In this document: positions 14,415-63,673 of the stretch, piece by piece | Position numbering within the stretch: the first letter of the stretch is position 1 | Layout of the letters: each line of letters opens with the position of its first letter | Assembly (NCBI GenBank): GCA_020058085.1 | Contig: JAGVER010000007.1 | Coordinates: forward strand, 71,969-135,968 | Reading direction: 5' to 3' | DNA from: Candidatus Omnitrophota bacterium | Lineage (GTDB): Bacteria; Omnitrophota; Gorgyraeia; Gygaellales; Profunditerraquicolaceae | DNA: 64,000 nucleotides | Notes under the pieces: model-generated | The model's database searches: none | Told to the model about the DNA's origin: nothing | Seen by the model: only the letters and a program-made list of their open reading frames with translations | Translations under genes and position numbers: made by a program

Positions 14415-14420
14415 AACATT

Positions 14421-14537
14421 TCCCGCTTCAAATGCTATGCCAAAATTCTCTACGATAATTTTGGCATATTCGGCGGGATAAATTCGCGCATCAACTTACT
14501 CACACTATCTGTTCGTAAGTTAAGCGCTCATTTAATG
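14421..14537 (+). promoter_or_regulatory. structured 5' leader, copy 1 of a repeat shared with infA
   Basis: About 115 nt are alignable to 62563-62677 and end at the start codon (GCTCATTTAATG). Three helices are conserved, with compensatory differences between the two copies. Confidence 0.45.
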
Positions 14538-22970: not shown

Positions 22971-22982
22971 GTTGGTATAATT

Positions 22983-23141
22983 AAGCACCTTAAGTTTTGG
23001 TCTAGGGCACCTTGCCAAATAGGATTGGCAAGTGCGCACTTTCTGTGCGAAATTTGAACACCATAAGTTTTGTCTAGTGAAATCCTTGTTGCCGTAGGCA
23101 ACAAGGAACTGACCGAACAAAAGTGAGGTCAAGTATAAGAG
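22983..23141 (-). repeat. box-plus-palindrome intergenic repeat array (family A), inverted orientation
   Basis: The reverse complement aligns with 46640-46830, e.g. ATTTCACTAGACAAAACTTATGGTGTTC versus ATTTCGTTAGACAAAAACTTATGGTGCTC. The same TTGTTGCC-N-GGCAACAA and CTTGCCA..TGGCAAG palindromes are present. Confidence 0.6.
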
Positions 23142-23174
23142 CCCAAGAAGATTTTATCTAAGGAGTCAACTAAA

Positions 23175-30128: not shown

Positions 30129-31427
30129 ATGAAAGTCGCTATAGTAGGTTCAGGTTATGTGGGTTTAGTTACCGGTGCTTGTCTTGCTAAGCTGGGTAAT
30201 AAGGTTATTTGCGTTGATAATGACCTTAAGAAAATATCTGAATTAAGAAAAGGGGAAGTCCCCATATATGAGCCGGGATTACAGGAATTGATCAGAGATA
30301 ATGTGAAGGAGAAAAGGCTATCTTTTTCTACGAGTATTAAAGATGCGGTTAGGGCATCGGAGATAATTTTTATTGCCGTAGGAACTCCGGATTCAGGGAG
30401 TGGTGAGGCGGATCTTACGGGCATAGAACATGTAGCGGCTGACATAGCTGTCAATTTGAAGGAATACCGGCTTATCGTTGAGAAATCTACAGTTCCGGTT
30501 GAAACCGGAGAATGGGTTAAACGGACCGTAGCTACCTATATTAAGAACAAGGTTGCTTTTGATGTTGCTTCTAATCCGGAATTCTTAAGAGAAGGGTCAG
30601 CGATCAATGACTTCATGCATCCGGATAGGATTGTAATAGGGGTAGAATCTAAAAGAGCCAAAGAGTTATTGCTCCAGTTGTATAAGCCTTTAGATGTGCC
30701 CAAAGTAGTAACCAATATAAGGTCCGCTGAATTAATTAAGCATGCTTCCAACGCGTTTTTAGCGACTAAGATTTCTTTTATTAATGCTGTTTCTCGTGTA
30801 TGCGATATAGTGGGTGCGGATGTTTGTGAGGTTGCTCGCGGGATGGGTTTGGACAAGAGAATAGGCAGGGCTTTCCTAGATGCGGGTTTAGGCTATGGCG
30901 GGTCATGTTTTCCCAAAGATCTAGAAGCCTTTATTAGTATTGCTGATAGAAGAGGTTATGATTTTAGGCTGCTTAAAGAAGTAAAAAAGATAAATGATGG
31001 GCAGAAGAATTATATTATTCATAAGATTAAGAGTTCGCTTTGGATTATAAAAGGTAAAACTATAGGCGTATTGGGCCTAGCTTTCAAGCCGAATACTGAT
31101 GATATACGTAGCGCTCCGGCAATAGATTTAATCAGGGCTCTTCAAGGCGAAGGGGCAAAGATTAAGGCCTACGATCCTAAGGCAATGAAAAAGGCAAAGG
31201 CTGTGCTTAGTAAAGTTGAATATTGCCGCGATCCTTATGCGGTTTGTAAAGGGTCTGATTGTTTATTTATCGCTACAGAATGGGATGAATTTAAGAAATT
31301 AGATCTTCTGAAGATAAAAAAGATGCTTAAGAGGCCGCTTATTATTGACAGCCGTAATATTTATACATCTGAAGAGATGCGCAAGTTGGGTTTTAACTAT
31401 GTTAGCGTTGGCAGGAGAAGCGAATGA
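30129..31427 (+). CDS. ugd: UDP-glucose 6-dehydrogenase
   Basis: MKVAIVGSGYVGLVTGACLA and the catalytic GYGGSCFPKD. The start is moved to ATG 30129, 4 nt after the lptD stop. Confidence 0.85.
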   Translation: MKVAIVGSGYVGLVTGACLAKLGNKVICVDNDLKKISELRKGEVPIYEPGLQELIRDNVKEKRLSFSTSIKDAVRASEIIFIAVGTPDSGSGEADLTGIEHVAADIAVNLKEYRLIVEKSTVPVETGEWVKRTVATYIKNKVAFDVASNPEFLREGSAINDFMHPDRIVIGVESKRAKELLLQLYKPLDVPKVVTNIRSAELIKHASNAFLATKISFINAVSRVCDIVGADVCEVARGMGLDKRIGRAFLDAGLGYGGSCFPKDLEAFISIADRRGYDFRLLKEVKKINDGQKNYIIHKIKSSLWIIKGKTIGVLGLAFKPNTDDIRSAPAIDLIRALQGEGAKIKAYDPKAMKKAKAVLSKVEYCRDPYAVCKGSDCLFIATEWDEFKKLDLLKIKKMLKRPLIIDSRNIYTSEEMRKLGFNYVSVGRRSE

Positions 31428-34168
31428 TCATTGATTATTTAGATAAATTTGAGAGTAGGTTAAGAAAAAAGGAAATTAAGATTGCGGTGGTAGGTTTAGG
31501 CTATGTTGGTTTGCCTCTAGCCTTGGAGTTCTCGCGGAAAGGTTTTCTTGTCTTTGGTATAGAGATTGACAAGGATAGGCTGGCCCATCTTAAGAGGAAA
31601 GAAACATATATAACTGATATCAGTTCGCAAGAGTTAAAAGGCGCTTTAAAATCCGGAAAGTTTATTCCTTGCGGAGATTTTAAAGTATTGAGAGAGACGG
31701 ATGTAGTTATAGTCTGTGTTCCCACGCCTTTAAAAAGAAAAATCCATCCGGATATATCTTTTATCAAAGAAGCAATTAAATCTATTTCGAAGAATTTAAA
31801 GATAGGAAGCTTGGTTGTTTTGGAGAGTACTACTTATCCGGGGACTACTGATGAGGTTATCCTGCCTCTTTTGGAATCAGGGGGATTAAAGCACGGAAGA
31901 GATTTTTATCTCTGTTTTTCGCCGGAAAGAATCGACCCGGGGAATGCTAAATACCCTGTCTCTAAGATTCCTAAGATTATCGGTGGGGTAAATAGGGAGG
32001 CTGGTTTACTAGGCAAGGCAGTATATGAGATTATTGTGAATAAGGTGGTTATGGTTTCTTCTACCCGGGTCGCGGAGATAACTAAACTCCTGGAGAATAC
32101 ATTTCGTATTGTTAATATTGGTCTGATAGACGAGTTGGCAATGATGGCACATAAGATGAAGATAGATATCTGGGAGGTTGTTGATGCGGCAGCTACCAAG
32201 CCATTTGGTTTTATGCCTTTTTATCCCGGGCCAGGTGTGGGCGGACACTGTTTAGATAAAAAAGAAGTGGTTTTTGTAAAAGCCGCGGGTGTTTTAAAAT
32301 CAATGGAGATGCCAGATTTTATAGAATATATCCAAAATCAAAAAGATAGCGATGTTAAAGTGCTGGCATTCGATCCTCTTAGGAAAAGAAGTATTTTTAA
32401 TAAAGTTACCGCGGCTTCAGTCAGGCCCTATAACGGAGAGATGGTAGATATTATTACCGAAGATGGGCGGCATCTTAAGGTGACAGATTTACATCCAATG
32501 TTTATATATAACGGCCAATCCTGGAGTTTAAAATACGCCAGAGATTTAAGAAAGGGTGATTCACTTCCTGTTTGTTTAGAGTTGCCTAAACTTAGCAATC
32601 GGAAACATTCATTTGTTGAAATTAACATTGTTGAACAGGTAAGGCTTAAAGGAAAAGGCTTGGTAGATAAAATACGGGTTAAGCCGGTAGATTTTTCCTG
32701 GAAGGATTATGCTAAAGAAATAAAATCGGTTTTACGTAAAGTAAATAAAGGCAAGATACCGGATTCTTGTTGGGACTATTTATCTGAAAATGTTCTGCCG
32801 TTAAAGTATTTCTATGATTTAGAGAAAATGGTTAAAATCAACTATGGCAGGATTAAGCTTGTAAGCGGACGGGGGCCAAGCTACAGTGAAATGCCCGCAA
32901 AAATTGTGCTTAATAATGATTTTTGCCGGTTCATTGGTTATTATTTAAGCGAAGGCTGCTTTACAAAAGATAAGAGTGCTAGGATTAGGCTTACTTTTAA
33001 CCGCGGTGAAAGAGAGTATATTAATGATGTTATTAACATACTGAAAAAAATAGGTATAAAAAGTTCGATTTATGAATCAAAAATTTGTTATTCATCTTGT
33101 ATAAAGGTTTCATCCAATCTTTTCGGGTTTTTAATCCGTGATGTTTTATGCTGTGGCGTTGACTGTTACGATATGAATATACCGGAGCAGTTTTTCGTTT
33201 TAGATAAAGAAAAAAAGAAATCTCTTATGTCGGGAATTTTCCGCGGAGACGCTTGCGTTGAGCATTTCTTCGGTAAATGGCGTTATCGTAAGAACGAAGA
33301 TGAATATTTCCATAATGTAAACACCGCCAACATTGCTTATTTTACCTCAAGCAGAAAATTATTTCAGCAATTAATTCTTATGTTGCACGATTTCAGTATT
33401 GTTCCCACGTTTCATAAACGCGAATATATGCTTCGTATTTTTGGTTACGACCAGCTTTTGTTTTTTAAGGATTTACTTGGCGGAAAAAAAGGAATGATAA
33501 TTAAAAAGTATTTAGCTCTTAATAAAAATAGGTCTAAAAATAAAACTTTTCAGAGATTTGGAAAATTTGCTACTGTAAAAGTGAAATCTGTATTACCAAC
33601 AAAAGGGGACTGGGTTTATTCCATTGAAACAGAAAAACCGCACTCTTTTATTACTTCTTATGGTATTGTTGTTCATAATTGCATACCGAAAGACCCGCTA
33701 TATTTATATTGGAAGGCTAAGAAATTTGGATTCAAATCGCGATTTATTAAGCTTGCTTCGGAAGTGATATCATATATGCCTGAATATGTTGTCAGGCGTT
33801 TGGAAGAGGCGCTTAGATCCAAAGGGTTAGAATTAAGCGGCGCCAATATATTGCTTATAGGGCTTACTTATAAGAAAGATGTAAAAGATTTGAGAAAATC
33901 ACCATCCTTAGATATATTTGAGATTTTGAAAAAGGAGCGCGCGCGTGTATGCTACCATGATCCATTAATACCTTATCTTAAGTTTGCCGGGTTAAACTTT
34001 AAGTCTTTGCCCCTTACTCAAGTAAACCTAAATAAATTTGATTGTGTAGTTATCGCAACAGATCATTCCAAGCTGGATTATAAATTAATCTTAGAAAACG
34101 CAAAGATCATATTTGATACGCGCAATATATATAAAGGTAAGGTTGACAAAAAAGTTATAAGACTATGA
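31424..34168 (+). CDS. UDP-sugar 6-dehydrogenase (UDP-ManNAc/GlcNAc dehydrogenase-like) interrupted in frame by an intein
   Basis: The N-extein KIAVVGLGYVGLPLALEF... ends at FYPGPGVGGH and the C-extein resumes at CIPKDPLYL. The joined exteins give 437 aa with the GGHC-IPKDP catalytic motif. Confidence 0.85.
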   Translation: MIIDYLDKFESRLRKKEIKIAVVGLGYVGLPLALEFSRKGFLVFGIEIDKDRLAHLKRKETYITDISSQELKGALKSGKFIPCGDFKVLRETDVVIVCVPTPLKRKIHPDISFIKEAIKSISKNLKIGSLVVLESTTYPGTTDEVILPLLESGGLKHGRDFYLCFSPERIDPGNAKYPVSKIPKIIGGVNREAGLLGKAVYEIIVNKVVMVSSTRVAEITKLLENTFRIVNIGLIDELAMMAHKMKIDIWEVVDAAATKPFGFMPFYPGPGVGGHCLDKKEVVFVKAAGVLKSMEMPDFIEYIQNQKDSDVKVLAFDPLRKRSIFNKVTAASVRPYNGEMVDIITEDGRHLKVTDLHPMFIYNGQSWSLKYARDLRKGDSLPVCLELPKLSNRKHSFVEINIVEQVRLKGKGLVDKIRVKPVDFSWKDYAKEIKSVLRKVNKGKIPDSCWDYLSENVLPLKYFYDLEKMVKINYGRIKLVSGRGPSYSEMPAKIVLNNDFCRFIGYYLSEGCFTKDKSARIRLTFNRGEREYINDVINILKKIGIKSSIYESKICYSSCIKVSSNLFGFLIRDVLCCGVDCYDMNIPEQFFVLDKEKKKSLMSGIFRGDACVEHFFGKWRYRKNEDEYFHNVNTANIAYFTSSRKLFQQLILMLHDFSIVPTFHKREYMLRIFGYDQLLFFKDLLGGKKGMIIKKYLALNKNRSKNKTFQRFGKFATVKVKSVLPTKGDWVYSIETEKPHSFITSYGIVVHNCIPKDPLYLYWKAKKFGFKSRFIKLASEVISYMPEYVVRRLEEALRSKGLELSGANILLIGLTYKKDVKDLRKSPSLDIFEILKKERARVCYHDPLIPYLKFAGLNFKSLPLTQVNLNKFDCVVIATDHSKLDYKLILENAKIIFDTRNIYKGKVDKKVIRL
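32249..33679 (+). mobile_element. 477-aa intein with LAGLIDADG homing-endonuclease domain
   Basis: It starts with Cys (CLDKKEVVFV). Block B is LKVTDLHPMF. The LAGLIDADG motifs are FIGYYLSEGCF and LMSGIFRGDACV. It ends VVHN, followed by the +1 Cys of the extein. Confidence 0.85.
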
Positions 34169-35100
34169 GAAATAAAAAAATAGTAGTTATAACCGGAGGA
34201 GCAGGGTTTATCGGCGCGAATCTTTGCCAAAGATTGGTTAATGAAGATTATCATGTAATTTGTGTCGATAATTTTATGACCAGTAGCTTAAACAACGTAA
34301 AGGGTCTGATTAAGGATAAAAGATTCAAACTGATTGAGCACAATGTTTCAGAACATATTACCATTCGAGGAGAAGTTAATTATGTTTTACATTGCGCATC
34401 GTTGGCCTCTCCGGCAGATTATCTGAATTTTCCTATTCAAACACTTAAAGTCGGCTCGTTGGGCACGCATAATGCTCTCGGGCTGGCCAAGGATAAAAAA
34501 GCGGTCTTTTTGCTTTTTTCCACATCAGAGGTTTATGGTGATCCTATGGTTCATCCTCAAAAAGAGAGCTATTGGGGTAACGTGAATCCGGTAGGCGTAC
34601 GCGGTTGTTATGATGAGTCTAAACGCTTTGCGGAAGCTATTACTATGGCTTATCATCGAATGCATAAAATTGATACAAAGATTGTGCGTATTTTTAATAC
34701 CTATGGTCCGATGATGAGGGCGAATGACGGTAGAGTAGTCTCTAATTTTATAAATCAGGCTATAGCTAATAAGCCGTTAACTGTCTATGGATCAGGTAAT
34801 CAGACGAGAAGTTTTTGCTATATCGATGATTTAATAGAAGGTTTATACAGGTTGATGCGTTCATCAATAAATGATCCGGTTAATTTAGGTAACCCGGGAG
34901 AATTTACTGTTATGCAATTGGCTAAATTAGTATTGAAGTTGGCTAATTCAAAGAGCAGGATTGTGTTCAAGGCTTTACCGCAAGATGACCCCCGCCAGCG
35001 TAGGCCCGATATTTCCCATGCTAAAAAACTACTTAAGTGGAGCCCGAATATAGAATTAGAGGATGGGCTTAGCAGAACAATAGCTTGGTTTAAAAAATGA
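34165..35100 (+). CDS. UDP-glucuronate decarboxylase (UDP-xylose synthase)-like SDR
   Basis: TGGAGFIGANLCQRL, catalytic YDESKR and NTYGPMMRANDGRVVSNFI. It follows two UDP-sugar dehydrogenases. Confidence 0.8.
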   Translation: MRNKKIVVITGGAGFIGANLCQRLVNEDYHVICVDNFMTSSLNNVKGLIKDKRFKLIEHNVSEHITIRGEVNYVLHCASLASPADYLNFPIQTLKVGSLGTHNALGLAKDKKAVFLLFSTSEVYGDPMVHPQKESYWGNVNPVGVRGCYDESKRFAEAITMAYHRMHKIDTKIVRIFNTYGPMMRANDGRVVSNFINQAIANKPLTVYGSGNQTRSFCYIDDLIEGLYRLMRSSINDPVNLGNPGEFTVMQLAKLVLKLANSKSRIVFKALPQDDPRQRRPDISHAKKLLKWSPNIELEDGLSRTIAWFKK

Positions 35101-35165
35101 GCCCCCTTAAGCTTTGATTTAGCCCTAAAAGCTGGATCCTTGACCGAACGTTAGTGAGGTCAAGG
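35099..35165 (-). repeat. family A repeat unit, inverted orientation
   Basis: The reverse complement of 35099-35124 (GGCTAAATCAAAGCTTAAGGGGGCTC) resembles the CGCTAAACCAAAACAGAAGGTGCTC box. An adjacent CCTTGACC..GGTCAAGG palindrome lies at 35138-35165. Confidence 0.4.
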
Positions 35166-35178
35166 AGTAAAAAAATAC

Positions 35179-45100: not shown

Positions 45101-46212
45101 TTCTGCTACAGGGCGCTTTTATCAATATTGCCGATGGCGGCGAGATAGCTAAGGATGTTCCTTTTGTTTATTGGGATCCGTATACTATTCCTGTATTAAC
45201 GGAAGTACCGGGAATCGTAAAATTCGAAGATTTAAAAGAGAATGTTACAGTTAAAGAAGAGCTTAATACTGTTACTAAATTAACAGAGCGTGTAGTTGTG
45301 GAGCATAAGCAGGAATTTCATCCACAGATAATTATTCTTGACGCAGCTGGTGAGGTCGCGGGAATTTATCCTATTCCAATTGGGGCCCATATTTTGGTTA
45401 AGGATGGCCAGCATATTGGCGGCGGTGAGCTCTTAGCTAAAATACCGCGTATGGTAGTTAAGACCAGGGATATTACCGGAGGGCTTCCGCGCGTTGCAGA
45501 ATTATTTGAGGCTAGAAGGCCTAAAGATCCGGCGGTAATTAGCGAAATTGACGGATTTATAGAGTTTGGTGAGTCTAAAAAGGGGCAGCGGGTAATCGTT
45601 GTGAAATCTACGACCGGAATGCAGAGAGAATATGTGATTCCTCATGGTAAGCATCCTAATGTTTATAAGGGGGACAAAGTTGATGCAGGCCAGCAGTTGA
45701 CAGACGGCCCGGTAGTTTTGCAGGATATTTTACGTGTTTGCGGGGATAAAGTCCTACAGGAGTATTTGGTCAATGAGGTTCAGGAAGTTTATCGGCTTCA
45801 GGGAGTGCGTATTAATGATAAGCACATTGAAGTTATTATCCGTCAAATGCTCAAAAAGATCAGAGTCGAGGATCCCGGTGACACAGAATTTTTAGCAACA
45901 CAACAAGTAGATAAATGGATTTTCCAGAAAGAGAACTCCCGGATTATCAAAAAAGGCGGTAAGCCTGCCATAGCTACTCCGTTATTGTTGGGGATAACCA
46001 AAGCTTCTTTAACCACTGAGAGTTTTATCTCTGCGGCTAGTTTCCAAGAAACTACAAAGGTATTAACTGAAGCAGCAACTTCAGGTAAGCGCGATGAGCT
46101 TTTTGGTTTAAAAGAGAATGTTATAGTTGGACATCTGATCCCTGCGGGGACGGGTTTTCCTGACCATCGCGATATAGAGGTGGTAAAGATGCAAGAAGAT
46201 AAGAAGGAATAA
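42199..46212 (+). CDS. rpoC: DNA-directed RNA polymerase beta' subunit
   Basis: 1337 aa with the zinc motif [14 protein letters not shown] and catalytic [12 protein letters not shown]. Confidence 0.98.
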
Positions 46213-46214
46213 AA

Positions 46215-46604
46215 ATGCCTACAATTTCACAGTTAATTAGGATCGCAAGAAAATCTAAAAATAAGAAGACTAAGTCTCCGGCTTTAAAGGGTTGTCCACA
46301 AAGACGCGGGGTTTGTCTTCAGGTGCGTACGATGACTCCTAAAAAGCCTAATTCAGCTCTGCGTAAGATTGCTAGGGTAAGGCTTACGACCGGTATAGAA
46401 GTTACTGCTTATATTCCGGGAGAGGGGCATAATTTACAGGAACATTCTATAGTTTTAGTTAGAGGCGGGCGTGTTAAGGATTTACCCGGCGTAAGGTATC
46501 ATATTATAAGAGGCACATTGGATGCTTCAGGAGTTAACGCAAGAAGAAGGGGACGTTCAAAATACGGAGCAAAAAGGCCTAAGCCCGGCGCTCCAGCTAA
46601 ATAA
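46215..46604 (+). CDS. rpsL: 30S ribosomal protein S12
   Basis: [22 protein letters not shown] and [10 protein letters not shown]. Confidence 0.97.
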
Positions 46605-46639
46605 TGATAAAGGCGCTCATCCTGTTTAGTAAAACTAAT

Positions 46640-46905
46640 GTTCGGGTCATTGTTGCCTACGGCAACAATGATTTCGTTAGACAAAAACTTATGGTGCTCA
46701 AATTTCGCTAAACAAAAACTAAAGGTGCTCTCCTGCTTAGTAACCCGCAGGATTCGCACAGTAAGTGCGTACTTGCCATTCTTGTATGGCAAGGTATCCT
46801 GAACAAAAACTAAAGGTGCTCTCCTGCTTAGTAACCGCTAAAAAATTATCAAAGATAATTTTTTAGCACACGCAGGATTTCGCTGAACAAAAACATAAGG
46901 TGCTC
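46640..46905 (+). repeat. family A box-plus-palindrome repeat array filling the rpsL-rpsG spacer
   Basis: There are four ~27-nt boxes (46672-46699, 46702-46730, 46798-46821, 46877-46905; consensus ATTTCGCTAAACAAAAAC-N-TAAGGTGCTC). They alternate with unrelated palindromes, and one palindrome is nested in another. Confidence 0.65.
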
Positions 46906-46909
46906 AAAA

Positions 46910-47380
46910 ATGAGAAGAAGAAAAGCTCAAGAAAAAGAAATATTAGCAGACCCGAAGTTTAACAGTAAAATCGTGGCTAAGTTTGTGAACATGGTTATGC
47001 TTGAAGGCAAGAAATCAGTCGCCGAAAGGATAGTTTATGAGGCTTTTGAGATCGCTAAGAAGAATCTTAACGAGCAGGATATCTTAAAAGTATTCTATAA
47101 GGCATTGGATAATGTTCGTCCGCGCTTAGAGGTTAAACCTCGCCGCGTAGGTGGGGCAACTTATCAGGTTCCGATTGAAGTTCGTCAGGAACGTGGCACA
47201 TCCATTGCGCTTCGCTGGCTACGTGATTTTGCGCAGAGCAAGAAAGGCAGACCAATGGAGCAGAAGCTTGCTGAAGAGATTATTTCAGCTTACAAAGGTG
47301 AAGGCGTGGCAATAAAGAAGAGAGATGATACGCATAAGATGGCTGAGAGCAATAAAGCTTTTGCGCATTTTAGGTGGTAA
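46910..47380 (+). CDS. rpsG: 30S ribosomal protein S7
   Basis: DPKFNSKIVAKFVNMVMLEGKKSVAERIVY. Confidence 0.97.
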   Translation: MRRRKAQEKEILADPKFNSKIVAKFVNMVMLEGKKSVAERIVYEAFEIAKKNLNEQDILKVFYKALDNVRPRLEVKPRRVGGATYQVPIEVRQERGTSIALRWLRDFAQSKKGRPMEQKLAEEIISAYKGEGVAIKKRDDTHKMAESNKAFAHFRW

Positions 47381-47395
47381 ATATAAAAGGAATAT

Positions 47396-49498
47396 ATGGA
47401 GCATAAAATAGGATTAGATAAAATAAGAAATATCGGGATTATCGCGCATATTGACGCCGGTAAAACTACGACTAGTGAACGTATATTATTTTATACGGGT
47501 AAGAACTATAAGCTGGGAGAAGTTCATGATGGCGCTGCTACTATGGATTGGATGGTGCAGGAGCAGGAGAGGGGAATTACTATTACCTCGGCTGCGACTA
47601 CCTGTAGTTGGAAAGATATCCGTATCAATCTTATTGATACTCCCGGTCACGTAGATTTTACCATTGAAGTAGAGAGGTCTTTGAAGGTACTAGATGGCGC
47701 AGTGGTAGTCTTTTGCGGAGTTGGCGGAGTTGAACCCCAATCAGAGACAGTCTGGCGTCAGGCTGATCGATATGGAGTTCCCAGGGTTGCTTTTGTGAAT
47801 AAGATGGATAGGGTAGGATCTAATTTCTTAGATGTAATTGACCAGATGCATAAAAGATTAGGTACAAATGCAGCGGCGATTCAGGTTCCCTTTGGAAAAG
47901 AAGCCGATTTTAAAGGCGTTATCGATTTAGTTGAAAAAAAATTAGTTTATTATAAAGATGATCTAGGGAAAGATATGGAGATTAAAGAGATACCTCCTGA
48001 AATGATCTCTGAAGTGCAGAAACAATATACTATTATGATTGAGCGATTGGCAGAGGTTGACGATAAGATTATGGAAGATTATCTGCATAATAAGGTGATC
48101 TCTGCCGCGGATTTGAAGTCAGCGATTAGAAAGGGCGTAATCGCGAATAAGTTTACGCCGGTTCTCTGCGGCTCATCATTTAAAAATAAAGGAGTGCAAC
48201 TAGTCTTAGATGCTATAAAGGATTATCTGCCTTCTCCTTTGGATGTGCCTTCTATCAAAGGGACTAACCCGGAGACGGGAGAGTTTGAGGAGATTAAAGT
48301 TTCGGAGAAGGCTCCTTTCTGCGCATTATGTTTTAAGGTGGCTACGGATCCTTATGTAGGGAAGATTAACTATATTCGTGTTTATTCCGGAACATTAACT
48401 GCAGGTACCTATATATATAATGCGTCTAAAAGGGAAAGAGAAAGAGTTACTAAGATAGTAAAGATGCATGCCAATCATCAGGAAGTTACAGATAGTATCT
48501 CTTGCGGTGAGATTGCTGCTGCTGTAGGGTTAAAACATACTAAGACTGGTGAGACCCTCTGTACCGAAAGCAATCCAATAGTTATTGAAGCAATGCGTTT
48601 TCCAGAGCCGGTTATTCAGCAGGCTATTGAACCTAAGTCTAAGGATGCGCAGGAGAAGTTAGGTTTGGCCTTACATAAATTAGAAGAAGAAGATCCTTCT
48701 TTTCGTGTCAGTTATAATCAGGAGACCGGGCAGACCCTTATCGCTGGTATGGGACAGTTACATTTAGAGATAATTATCGACAGAATTTTGCGTGAGTTTA
48801 ATGTTGAAGCACAGGTAGGCCAGCCTCAGGTAGCTTACCGGGAGACATTGACTAAGAAGGTAAGGTCAGTGGGGAAGTTTATATCCCAAAGCGGCGGCCG
48901 TGGACAATATGGCCATTGTGTTTTGGAGATGGAACCGCAAGAGACACCCGGCGCAGGAATCACATTTGAAGATAAGATCAAGAGCGGCGCAATTCCTCGT
49001 GAATTTATACCGGCAGTAAAGCAGGGAGTTATGGGTTCTGCAAAAAGCGGAGTATTGGCCGGTTATCCCGTTAATGATGTAAAAGTAGTTTTAGTCGATG
49101 GTTCTTTTCATGAAGTTGATTCTTCCGAATTAGCATTTCAAATGGCCGGGTCATTAGCATTTAGCGATGGGTTAAAAAAAGCCGGTCCGATTTTATTAGA
49201 GCCGATTATGGATATAGAAGTAATTGTTCCGGAAGAATTTATGGGCCAAGTTATCGGAGATCTAAGTTCTCGTCGGGCAAAGATAGTTTCGCTTGCGCAA
49301 CGCCTTAATCTTCGGACTATTCGCGCTAATATTCCCTTAGCAGAAGTCTTTAATTACGCTACTATATTAAGATCCTTGACACAAGGCCGTGCATCGTATA
49401 CAATGGAACCTTCTTTTTACACGGAAGTTCCTTCACATATATCAGAAAAAATTGTTTCAGGTTTTGCTGCTACGGGTTCTACTAGAAAGAGCCTTTAA
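47396..49498 (+). CDS. fusA: elongation factor G
   Basis: [27 protein letters not shown]; 700 aa. Confidence 0.97.
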
Positions 49499-49502
49499 AA
49501 TA

Positions 49503-49598
49503 ACACCCGGCCTCATTGGAAGGGCCGGTGGGCACTTAATGTGCAACACCCCGCGCTTATAAGGAATTGCGCGGGTGTGCCCTTTCTGGGCAAGGAGG
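49503..49598 (+). repeat. family B intercistronic element (GC hairpin with conserved loop plus SD-adjacent hairpin), expanded copy
   Basis: ACACCCGGCC-TCATTGGAAG-GGCCGGTG, GCACTTAATGTGC, an extra hairpin at 49547-49577, then TGCCCTTTCTGGGCA abutting AAGGAGGA. Confidence 0.5.
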
Positions 49599-57018: not shown

Positions 57019-57031
57019 GTTGTCTGGGCAG

Positions 57032-57180
57032 TTCGCTAGACAAAAACATAAGGTGCTCTTATACTTGACCTCGCAAAAGCTCGGCCAAGTATTTCGCTAA
57101 ACCAAAACAGAAGGTGCTCTTATACTTGACCTCGCAAAAGCTCGGCCAAGTATTTCGCTAAACCAAAACAGAAGGTGCTC
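57032..57180 (+). repeat. family A repeat: one box plus a perfect tandem duplication of a 61-nt unit
   Basis: The box is at 57032-57058. The unit TTATACTTGACCTCGCAAAAGCTCGGCCAAGTATTTCGCTAAACCAAAACAGAAGGTGCTC occurs at 57059-57119 and is identical at 57120-57180. Confidence 0.75.
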
Positions 57181-57185
57181 AAAAT

Positions 57186-57371
57186 ATGGCTAAGAATTCA
57201 CAGATAGCTCGATGGAAAAGGAAAGCTAAATTTCCCTCACGCCAACATAACCGTTGCGCGATATGCGGTCGGTCAGGCGGGTATCTTCGTAGGTTTCAGC
57301 TATGCCGTTTATGTTTCCGGGAATTAGTCTGGCAGGGGATGATACCGGGCGTAAAAAAAGCGAGCTGGTGA
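57186..57371 (+). CDS. rpsN: 30S ribosomal protein S14, short zinc-ribbon (type Z) form
   Basis: 61 aa with [23 protein letters not shown]. Confidence 0.95.
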
Positions 57372-57372
57372 T

Positions 57373-57420
57373 ACACCCGGCCTAATTGGATAGGCCAGTA
57401 TGTGCTTCTGCACAAGGAGA
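57373..57420 (+). repeat. family B intercistronic element, compact/degenerate copy
   Basis: ACACCCGGCC-TAATTGGATA-GGCCAG, then TGTGCTTCTGCACA abutting AGGAGA, 4 nt before the rpsH ATG. Confidence 0.45.
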
Positions 57421-57424
57421 ACAA

Positions 57425-57820: not shown

Positions 57821-57905
57821 AACATAAAACAAAAACTGAAGGTGGTCAATACTTGACCTCGCTCAGCTCGGCAAGTATTTCGCTAGATCAAATCATAAGG
57901 AGCTC
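57821..57905 (+). repeat. family A repeat (two boxes flanking one palindrome) in the rpsH-rplF spacer
   Basis: AAACATAAAACAAAAACTGAAGGTGGTC (57821-57848), an ATACTTGACC..GGCAAGTAT palindrome, then TTTCGCTAGATCAAATCATAAGGAGCTC (57878-57905), which supplies the SD for rplF. Confidence 0.55.
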
Positions 57906-57906
57906 A

Positions 57907-58461
57907 ATGTCTAGGATAGGCAAGAAAATTATAGTAATTCCAAAAGAAGCAAAGGTTGAAGTAAAGGATAACATTATCTTTGTTGAAGGGCCTAAGGGGA
58001 AGTTAAATATGGCATTATCCCCACGTATAACTTTGGAGATAAAGGATAGTCAGATTTTAGTTAAAAGACTAACCGATATTAAGACGGACAAGTCTTTGCA
58101 TGGATTATTTCGCGCGCTTATTGTCAATATGATTAAGGGTGTTACCGAAGGCTACAAAAAGGAGCTTGAGATAATCGGCGTAGGTTTTAAGGCAGCGGTT
58201 CAAGGGGCTAATTTAAATATGAGTTTGGGTTTTTCTCATCAGGTAAATTTTTCAATACCCGAAGGTATTAAGATAGAGGCACCTAAGCCGACCCAGTTAG
58301 TTATAACCGGAATAGATAAAGCGTTGGTTGGTAAGGTTTCAACCGAGATACGTTCTATATACCCACCTGAGCCGTACAAGGGCAAAGGTATTCGTTTCTT
58401 AGGTGAGCATGTAAAGAAGAAAATAGGTAAGGCTCAAGCAACTGGTAGTGGCGGCAAATAG
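57907..58461 (+). CDS. rplF: 50S ribosomal protein L6
   Basis: MSRIGKKIIVIPKE and PYKGKGIR. The start is moved to ATG 57907. Confidence 0.96.
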   Translation: MSRIGKKIIVIPKEAKVEVKDNIIFVEGPKGKLNMALSPRITLEIKDSQILVKRLTDIKTDKSLHGLFRALIVNMIKGVTEGYKKELEIIGVGFKAAVQGANLNMSLGFSHQVNFSIPEGIKIEAPKPTQLVITGIDKALVGKVSTEIRSIYPPEPYKGKGIRFLGEHVKKKIGKAQATGSGGK

Positions 58462-62559: not shown

Positions 62560-62562
62560 TTG

Positions 62563-62677
62563 TCCCGTCTCATAATCATGCCAAGATTATACGATAATCT
62601 TGGCATATTCGACGGGATAAATTCGCACAATAACTTACTCACACTGTTGTGTTCGTAAGTTATGTGCTCATTTAATG
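62563..62677 (+). promoter_or_regulatory. structured 5' leader, copy 2 of the repeat shared with hflX
   Basis: It aligns with 14421-14537 over its full length and ends at the infA start codon (GCTCATTTAATG). Three helices are retained through compensatory substitutions. Confidence 0.45.
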
Positions 62678-63089: not shown

Positions 63090-63100
63090 TTTACTGTAAG

Positions 63101-63192
63101 GCACCCGGACTTATTTGAGAGGCCGGTACCTCGACATAAATGAATGCCGAGTATCCCGCTTCTGCGGGATGTGCACTTACTGTGCAAGGAGG
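63101..63192 (+). repeat. family B intercistronic element, expanded copy
   Basis: GCACCCGGAC-TTATTTGAGA-GGCCGG, an extra hairpin ATCCCGCTTCTGCGGGAT (63153-63170), then TGCACTTACTGTGCA abutting AAGGAGG. Confidence 0.5.
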
Positions 63193-63613: not shown

Positions 63614-63623
63614 AATGTATATA

Positions 63624-63673
63624 ACACCCGGCCTTAATTGAGAGGCCGGTGCGCACTTACTGTGCAGGGAGAG
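63624..63673 (+). repeat. family B intercistronic element, compact copy
   Basis: ACACCCGGCC-TTAATTGAGA-GGCCGGTG, then GCACTTACTGTGC abutting AGGGAGAG, 3 nt before the rpsK ATG. Confidence 0.5.

Follow-up and report, generated by a model that had tools for sequence, protein, structure and literature searches.

The MIRUs of Mycobacterium, as Supply et al. reportedly described in 1997, are intercistronic tandem repeats within operons. REP palindromes are marked at one end by a conserved tetranucleotide, GTAG or CGTC (PMC3733652), and in the mosaics called BIMEs the REPs stand in alternating orientation (PMC2817692). BOX elements lie near genes, are predicted to form stem-loops when transcribed, and can affect downstream expression (PMC3049150).

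In this study, we analyse an array of short boxes and hairpins in the str operon of a Candidatus Omnitrophota genome, within a stretch of 64,000 nt that we call the window. Omnitrophota are uncultivated, often ultra-small bacteria, and we know of nothing on the control of their gene expression. A literature search retrieved nothing relevant on such repeats in Omnitrophota, and the hairpin-box repeat seems to be undescribed so far, yet it belongs to the intergenic mosaic repeats, a class well known from bacteria.

Organisation of the rpsL-rpsG spacer

The window carries genes in the order rpoB-rpoC-rpsL-rpsG-fusA-tuf, followed by S10/spc ribosomal-protein genes. The spacer between rpsL and rpsG (46605-46909) is 305 nt long, and a first-pass annotation, made from the letters of this DNA, had described it as four copies of a box alternating with palindromes. 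All of these modules are present where that annotation had placed them (Table 1), and they are far above chance: with up to three mismatches, the box consensus matches nine times in the 64-kb window against 0.03 matches expected, and none of 100 shuffled sequences reaches nine. The box itself is non-palindromic, ~27 nt long (TTCGCTARAYAAAA-N-TTAAGGTGCTC), and has a Shine-Dalgarno-type 3′ end.

Some details of that description need correction. The spacer was said to consist wholly of boxes and palindromes, but its first 42 nt (46605-46646) amount to no more than a degenerate remnant. Every box was said to end in AAGGTG, which is right for the last one, 7 nt before the ATG at 46910, and wrong for box 1, which reads ATGGTG. 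The segment reported to occur twice does so, with identity over 35 nt (AACAAAAAC...TAACC) and 97% identity over 38 nt, the base just before it being A in one copy and G in the other. The third box is truncated at its 5′ end and lacks the ATTTCGCT head.

A covariance model of the hairpin followed by the box (R1), built from 37 units, matches H1 plus box 1 with 60.5 bits (E = 6e-12) and the two-tier H2 plus box 4 with 49.1 bits (46822-46908). The inner palindrome of the two-tier H2 (46837-46867) is perfect, with 14-nt arms that are 100% complementary. The predicted minimum free energy of the spacer is −93.1 kcal/mol (z = −4.45 against shuffles), and in this fold the internal boxes are single-stranded between stable hairpins and the box 4 stretch is likewise unpaired.

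Table 1. Coordinates of the spacer modules, their flanking genes and further copies in the window
Feature	Coordinates	Strand	Basis or remark
rpsL (ribosomal protein S12), upstream gene	46215-46604	+	ORF and translation; orthologues in relatives are Pfam Ribosom_S12_S23
Degenerate remnant module: box 3′ end AAAGGCGCTC (46609-46618), decayed H2-like half hairpin ATCCTGTTTAGTAAAAC...	46609-46646	+	61% match to box+H2 unit
Hairpin H1: TCATTGTTGCC-TAC-GGCAACAATGA	46647-46671	+	inverted repeat, 11-nt arms, 100% complementary
Box copy 1 (ATTTCGTTAGACAAAAACTTATGGTGCTC)	46671-46699	+	ends ATGGTG
Box copy 2	46702-46730	+	box consensus, R1
Hairpin H2, single-tier: TCCTGC-TTAGTAACCC-GCAGGA	46731-46752	+	sequence; with box 2, forms the 49-nt unit missing at 22971-23174
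Hairpin H3, TTCGC-led: CGCAC-AGTAA-GTGCG at 46755-46769	within 46753-46796	+	sequence
Hairpin H4: TACTTGCCA...TGGCAAGGTA, one bulge	46770-46796	+	sequence
Box copy 3, 5′-truncated (TCCTGAACAAAAACTAAAGGTGCTC)	46797-46821	+	box consensus
Hairpin H2, two-tier: outer stem TCCTGC (46822)/GCAGGA (46872-46877)	46822-46877	+	sequence
Box copy 4, Shine-Dalgarno-like AAGGTG (46897-46902), 7 nt before rpsG ATG	46877-46905	+	sequence
rpsG (ribosomal protein S7), downstream gene	46910-47380	+	homologues carry PF00177
Second array, rplE-rpsN spacer	57019-57185	+	a box followed by two perfect 61-nt units (each hairpin TATACTTGACC...GGCCAAGTAT + box)
Third site, rpsH-rplF spacer	57821-57906	+	degenerate box, hairpin, box (AAGGAG variant); R1 58 bits
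Antisense composite: H5-like hairpin, H1, box, H3, H4, box	22971-23174	-	accD / ABC-transporter ATPase gap, both genes +
Decayed antisense copy: hairpin CTCCTTGACC...GGTCAAGGAT, then box-like GCTAAATCAAAGCTTAAGGGGGC	35096-35166	-	R1 E = 0.07 and 1.2 (weak)

Other copies in the window

At four loci of the 64-kb window, model R1 detects 10 units with E < 0.02; a fifth locus gives a weak match (10-11 units at five loci). Within each array, the units run head-to-tail in one orientation. The rplE-rpsN array has a period of 61, 2.4 copies and 96% matches, and its last box abuts the rpsN ATG at 57186; in the rpsH-rplF spacer, the AAGGAG-variant box abuts the rplF ATG at 57907. Within the window, the AAGGTG Shine-Dalgarno variant would serve rpsG, rpsN and rplF only. 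We infer that the last box is the ribosome-binding site of rpsG, and likewise of rpsN and rplF. On the minus strand, a second H1 copy lies at 23086-23104 and the H3-H4 pair recurs at ~23010-23051.

The hairpin-box unit across Omnitrophota

A degenerate box pattern was scanned over one genome per GTDB species. More than 115 stretches were retrieved, in genomes of at least ~57 species of Omnitrophota type, some of them labelled Planctomycetales or Patescibacteria; five further matches among those listed lie inside genes of unrelated taxa and apparently arose by chance. Among the matches listed, other species carry at least 5-8 loci each. This census bears out the proposal of a dispersed, mosaic intergenic repeat family, since the box recurs at other sites of the window as well as in the genomes of dozens of relatives.

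The box is ~80-90% identical across many species and stands nearly always directly 3′ of a hairpin, whose stem sequence varies widely with pairing kept. Specifically, in 72% of the instances among the matches listed, a stem of 6 bp or more without gaps stops exactly where the box begins, against ~15% at distant offsets. The outer stem is ~8 bp long and near-perfect, mostly starting with (A/G)TCC and ending with GGAT, and often encloses an AT-rich inner hairpin. The hairpins span either 19-36 nt or 49-85 nt, and in the larger kind the AT-rich inner hairpin is flanked by conserved internal-loop strands, TCGTAA-like on one side and ACTC-like on the other. About one in two family members among the matches listed has a two-tier hairpin.

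In alignment A2, whose sequences were pre-selected for stems, 97.9% of the cells are paired and seven of the eight pairs are changed on both sides. Stem mismatches are G-U rather than A-C by 31:14 overall, and the whole excess sits at the terminal (closing) pair; in A2, this pair is A-U 24 times, G-U 10 times and A-C never. In the interior the two kinds are equally frequent (13:14), and the stems are therefore near-perfect DNA palindromes, without the usual signature of old RNA helices. For a selfish repeat, the box is unusually well conserved, and together with the strong sense-strand bias this hints at a selected function. The closing pair, with G-U but no A-C, likewise hints that selection acts on the transcribed sense form.

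At the gathering score, a search of the window against Rfam 15 matched two tRNAs only; the spacer gave nothing better than E = 2, and no family even at E = 10.

Relation to downstream genes and translation starts

The pattern scan retrieves well-conserved boxes only, and its orientation and start-codon statistics are biased for that reason: among the matches listed, box and downstream gene share a strand in 81 cases and lie on opposite strands in 18 (~80% co-oriented), and ~40 of the 81 co-oriented boxes have the start codon no more than 17 nt away. The start codon comes immediately after the box (GGTGCTCAATG) or is separated from it by an additional AAGGAGG. Pfam confirms ten downstream genes (icd/leuB, glmS, purF, dnaK, gap, pfk, asd, aroC, recA and ppdK), and they are housekeeping genes. 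The 16S 3′ end of an Omnitrophota is canonical (GGATCACCTCCTTTCT), and the box is therefore an ordinary Shine-Dalgarno of AAGG/GGTG type with one mismatch; for the same reason, the idea that AAGGTGCTC pairs perfectly with a 16S tail of unusual sequence was rejected.

Several database proteins among the glmS homologues are 12-13 residues longer at the N-terminus (623-624 vs 611 aa), and gene callers may have extended these upstream through the repeat. The boxes hold Shine-Dalgarno-like sequences that serve no gene, a warning to gene callers.

Other functional assignments of the modules were considered and rejected. As a promoter, with the box as −10 element and the TTGnnn of an inner-hairpin arm as −35 element, the unit offers TRRAYA without the final T and often with G at position 2; single-tier units have no −35 element, and a scan of 46000-47400 finds five weak sites against 2.6 expected. 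As terminators, the hairpins have no U-tract after any of them, and the spacer has no terminator-like site on the plus strand. One box copy contains GTTAGAC, reminiscent of an integron attC site, but the consensus is GCTAGAC and the inverted partner is absent.

Turnover of the array between relatives

The first-pass annotation had proposed comparing this spacer between relatives for changes in module copy number, and such changes occur. Compared with the 305 nt of the window, the rpsL-rpsG spacer is 62 nt long in the relatives at loci L001-3 (S7 99% identical), with a single hairpin and a single box; 29 nt in L004-6 and L202 (S7 97%), with the box alone; 111 nt in L203-205 (S7 95%), with a two-tier hairpin, a box and a partial box; and 12 nt in L206-208 (S7 94%), where it reads GGTGCTTAAAAA and the Shine-Dalgarno overlaps the stop codon. 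Several relatives thus retain a box, or only its 3′ end, as the sole sequence before rpsG. On this sequence comparison, the rpsL-rpsG array is a recent, lineage-specific expansion.

The two-tier hairpin had been read as a palindrome inserted within another palindrome, a reading that the comparison does not support. In L203, with S7 95% identical, the outer stem and inner palindrome stand at the same locus as in the window, with the loop TTC instead of AAA; the two-tier hairpin is therefore an older standard form and not a recent insertion. The single-tier H2 copies of the window and L001 have different internal end-points and look like independent deletion derivatives of the two-tier form.

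A conserved small protein or leader in the spacer had been named as a finding that would speak against a repeat family. There is no such peptide or leader, because relatives with S7 94-99% identical lack most of the spacer. A 35-codon ORF (46604-46711), whose ATG overlaps the rpsL stop (TAATG), is almost certainly spurious, judging from the absence of its DNA from relatives.

Turnover is also seen at other sites. The rplE-rpsN spacer of relatives is 13 nt and their rpsH-rplF spacer 27-31 nt long, and in L206 a hairpin and box precede rpsH, a position that in the window is taken by another hairpin family. Across 540 kb of ribosomal-protein loci of relatives, model R1 finds five units, against 10 in the 64-kb window. 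Furthermore, four glmS orthologues in gyrA-tRNA-glmS context, an unbiased sample, comprise one with a variant of the unit, one with a partial unit and two without; the unit is therefore both gained and lost at orthologous sites and is not obligatory. In these four Omnitrophota (L209-L212), the tRNA-glmS spacer ranges from 10 to ~125 nt.

Neighbouring repeat families and other features

A second family occurs in the window at 14415-14534 and 62560-62660, and in relatives at L001 4055-4182, L004 3977-4173 and L203 ~1055-1265. It is built from a two-tier hairpin (..cccgtc..gacggga), TAAATTCGCGCA, a further, long hairpin (AACTTAC..GTAAGTT) and GCGCTCATTTA, which abuts the ATG, with no Shine-Dalgarno before the ATG; it precedes a GTPase gene at 14535 and an infA-like ORF. 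In relatives it occupies the rpoC-rpsL gap, which is 2 nt in the window. At L209, a box of the present family is split by an extra hairpin (TTCGCTAAAT-(GGGCTTGCC..GCCCGG)-GAGTGTGCTCAAA ATG), an arrangement that links the architectures of family 1 and family 2.

A third family consists of paired hairpins, ACACCCGGCC..GGCCGGTG and then GCAC..GTGC, at 49499-49566, 57373-57424, ~63095-63139 and 63614-63670, where it precedes tuf, rpsH and two more ribosomal-protein genes. Elsewhere in the window, an intein (Pfam Intein_splicing and LAGLIDADG_3) interrupts a UDP-glucose/GDP-mannose dehydrogenase gene (31424-34168; 914-aa product).

Growth of the array and rival readings

We favour the view that a dispersed modular repeat, widespread in Candidatus Omnitrophota, has piled up in this spacer in a lineage-specific way, the extra copies being probably passengers. 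The upstream units would be copies that arose by tandem duplication and, at the junctions between hairpin foot and TTCGC, by recombination or insertion. Two arrangements in the window bear on this step. The minus-strand composite at 22971-23174 equals the H1-box-H3-H4-box of the spacer minus exactly one 49-nt box+H2 unit, with an ATTT/CGC junction, and the rplE-rpsN array includes a perfect 61-nt tandem.

A Pfam scan of 40 window ORFs found no transposase. We also considered target-site duplication, in which the inserting piece would be a hairpin with TTCGCTAGACAAAAC and the target a TAAGGTGCTC ribosome-binding site. A AAGGTGCT-like duplicated left flank accompanies 16% of simple units against 1.6% of controls, and this copy, enriched but in the minority, did not lead us to adopt the mechanism. 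With target duplication weakly supported and no transposase in the window, we therefore infer duplication and recombination at the box or TTCGC junctions as a more probable route than transposition. In another Omnitrophota MAG, LacPavin_0920_WC90_MAG_47_10, a ~190-nt composite is present in five copies (L014, L025, L056, L064 and L110) with unique flanks; it has ~22-nt terminal inverted repeats (CTTTTCGTTTGCGTCGGGA ... TCCCGAGCAAACGAAAAG), contains a hairpin-box unit and a family-2-like module, and appears MITE-like.

Once added, the upstream units would be carried in the str-operon mRNA without polarity, since no U-tract follows the hairpins and the start codon always regains a functional ribosome-binding site beside it. 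Lacking a U-tract, the hairpins would not terminate transcription, and the internal units appear dispensable, because relatives manage with 12-62 nt. The extra copies are most likely neutral, or only mildly modulatory, passengers.

A bolder reading, which we hold to be unlikely, is that hairpin and box form a portable translation-initiation cassette, mobile or spread by recombination, that has its own A-rich leader and Shine-Dalgarno and is kept by RNA-level selection clade-wide. Because it would bring its own leader and Shine-Dalgarno, such a cassette could settle between the cistrons of essential operons, and at the 5′ ends of housekeeping genes, with no polar damage. If this is true, the hairpin would be a processing or stability signal and the box a ribosome-loading site, and the unit would represent a new clade-wide class of structured cis-element, not junk.

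It is also unlikely that the unit is a selected cis-acting RNA module, in which the hairpin is a stabiliser or processing signal (5′ or 3′), the single-stranded, A-rich box with its Shine-Dalgarno is a translation enhancer or stand-by site, and the str array tunes rpsG/fusA/tuf output. The conservation of the box across at least ~57 species while the stems covary would suit such a module, but the unit is rare and its position not fixed in the 540 kb of ribosomal-protein loci from relatives, close relatives have the same operon with spacers of 12-62 nt, and only one of the four glmS orthologues has a variant and one a partial unit. Co-orientation with the downstream gene (81:18), with about half of the co-oriented boxes abutting the start codon among the matches listed, and the position before housekeeping genes also argue for it, but antisense copies occur. 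Similarly, the terminal pair, never A-C, is compatible with folding of the sense strand, but interior G-U and A-C mismatches are equal in number. The internal boxes are single-stranded between stable hairpins, but the predicted fold does not sequester the rpsG ribosome-binding site, and a stand-by site is therefore unneeded.

We regard as improbable that the array is a true REP/BIME of REPIN type, moved by a RAYT transposase (Y1/HUH) with the hairpins, in single-stranded DNA, as its recognition targets. HUH enzymes cleave next to a hairpin, and the unit boundary, a hairpin foot followed by a fixed TTCGC, resembles such cleavage. The mosaic arrays of short extragenic palindromes, the near-perfect stems with symmetric mismatch statistics, and the terminal inverted repeats and unique flanks of the ~190-nt composite in the other MAG point the same way, and the hairpins, 15-56 nt long and all intergenic, agree with the 20-40 bp imperfect extragenic palindromes of REP/BIME. 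The hairpin ends do not: among the listed instances, hairpins start with (A/G)TCC... after GGTGCTC and end with ...GGAT before TTCGCT, and neither strand has the GTAG or CGTC tag of REPs at either end (PMC3733652). Nor do the units alternate in orientation, as those of BIMEs do (PMC2817692). Furthermore, one and the same box is combined with six or more unrelated hairpin sequences in a single genome, the opposite of REP families, and no Y1 transposase is encoded among the 40 window ORFs scanned. The first-pass annotation had called the spacer a REP/BIME-like mosaic family; the dispersed mosaic part of this label stands, and the REP/BIME membership is not supported, given the missing tag, the missing alternation, no RAYT found among the window ORFs scanned, and a conserved part that is a non-palindromic box and not the palindrome.

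That the array is an artefact of short-read mis-assembly of repeats is very improbable. The source is a MAG, and repeat copy number is a feature that assemblers tend to get wrong, but the units of 31-91 nt are below typical read length, the order of the distinct hairpins is unique, and independent assemblies of relatives have the same kinds of unit at the same sites. The weakest reading, an S7 autoregulatory leader in the rpsL-rpsG intercistronic RNA or a small-peptide or MIRU-like coupling ORF, appears largely refuted by the comparative data and is exceedingly improbable: the spacer has what we take to be the position of the E. coli S7 operator (S7 binding the rpsL-rpsG intercistronic RNA), and the 35-codon ORF starts on the rpsL stop, but the structure is not kept in relatives with S7 94-99% identical, the same modules precede unrelated genes and lie antisense, Rfam gives no match to the spacer even at E = 10, no ORF in the spacer ends at the rpsG start, and conservation is impossible for DNA that is absent in relatives.

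A repeat family that dozens of species share, that lies directly at the start codons of housekeeping genes and that can quadruple inside the str operon offers a handle on the harmless invasion of essential operons by intergenic repeats. The number of modules differs between genomes that are 95-99% related, and it is therefore a ready strain-typing marker. The hairpin-box unit is also a candidate RNA motif.

Comparison with described repeat families

A CRISPR array, in which identical repeats alternate with unique spacers of constant length beside cas genes or a leader, was set aside: the 'spacers' here are palindromes that themselves recur, measure 2-71 nt and do not differ from each other in the 61-nt tandem, and the sole Rfam CRISPR-DR match has E = 2.2.

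REP/BIME elements of Enterobacteria and Pseudomonas, with their RAYT-mobilised REPINs, resemble the Omnitrophota array as short extragenic palindromes that form mosaics inside operons and between them, are co-transcribed with their neighbours, vary in copy number between relatives and have been proposed to stabilise mRNA. REP/BIME elements number more than 100 per genome; the 64 kb of the window contain 10-11 units. In REP, however, the palindrome itself is conserved, whereas in the Omnitrophota unit the 27-nt Shine-Dalgarno box is conserved, the hairpins are heterogeneous and all run in one direction. Pneumococcal BOX (boxA-boxB(n)-boxC) is likewise modular, with an internal module number that varies between strains. 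BOX has no sequence relationship to the present unit, it has fixed terminal modules, terminal inverted repeats and target duplications, and it is not reported as the source of the downstream gene's ribosome-binding site.

The neisserial NIME comes close in layout, with a short conserved repeat (dRS3) that alternates with heterogeneous RS segments between genes (PMC1797815). It differs in that dRS3 are 20-bp inverted repeats and targets of phage integration, not oriented to genes and without a ribosome-binding site. The MIRUs share with the Omnitrophota array tandem units between cistrons, orientation with transcription, and compatibility with continued translation downstream. In MIRUs, small overlapping ORFs provide translational coupling, whereas the Omnitrophota spacer, without such ORFs, has its Shine-Dalgarno box regenerated at the 3′ end.
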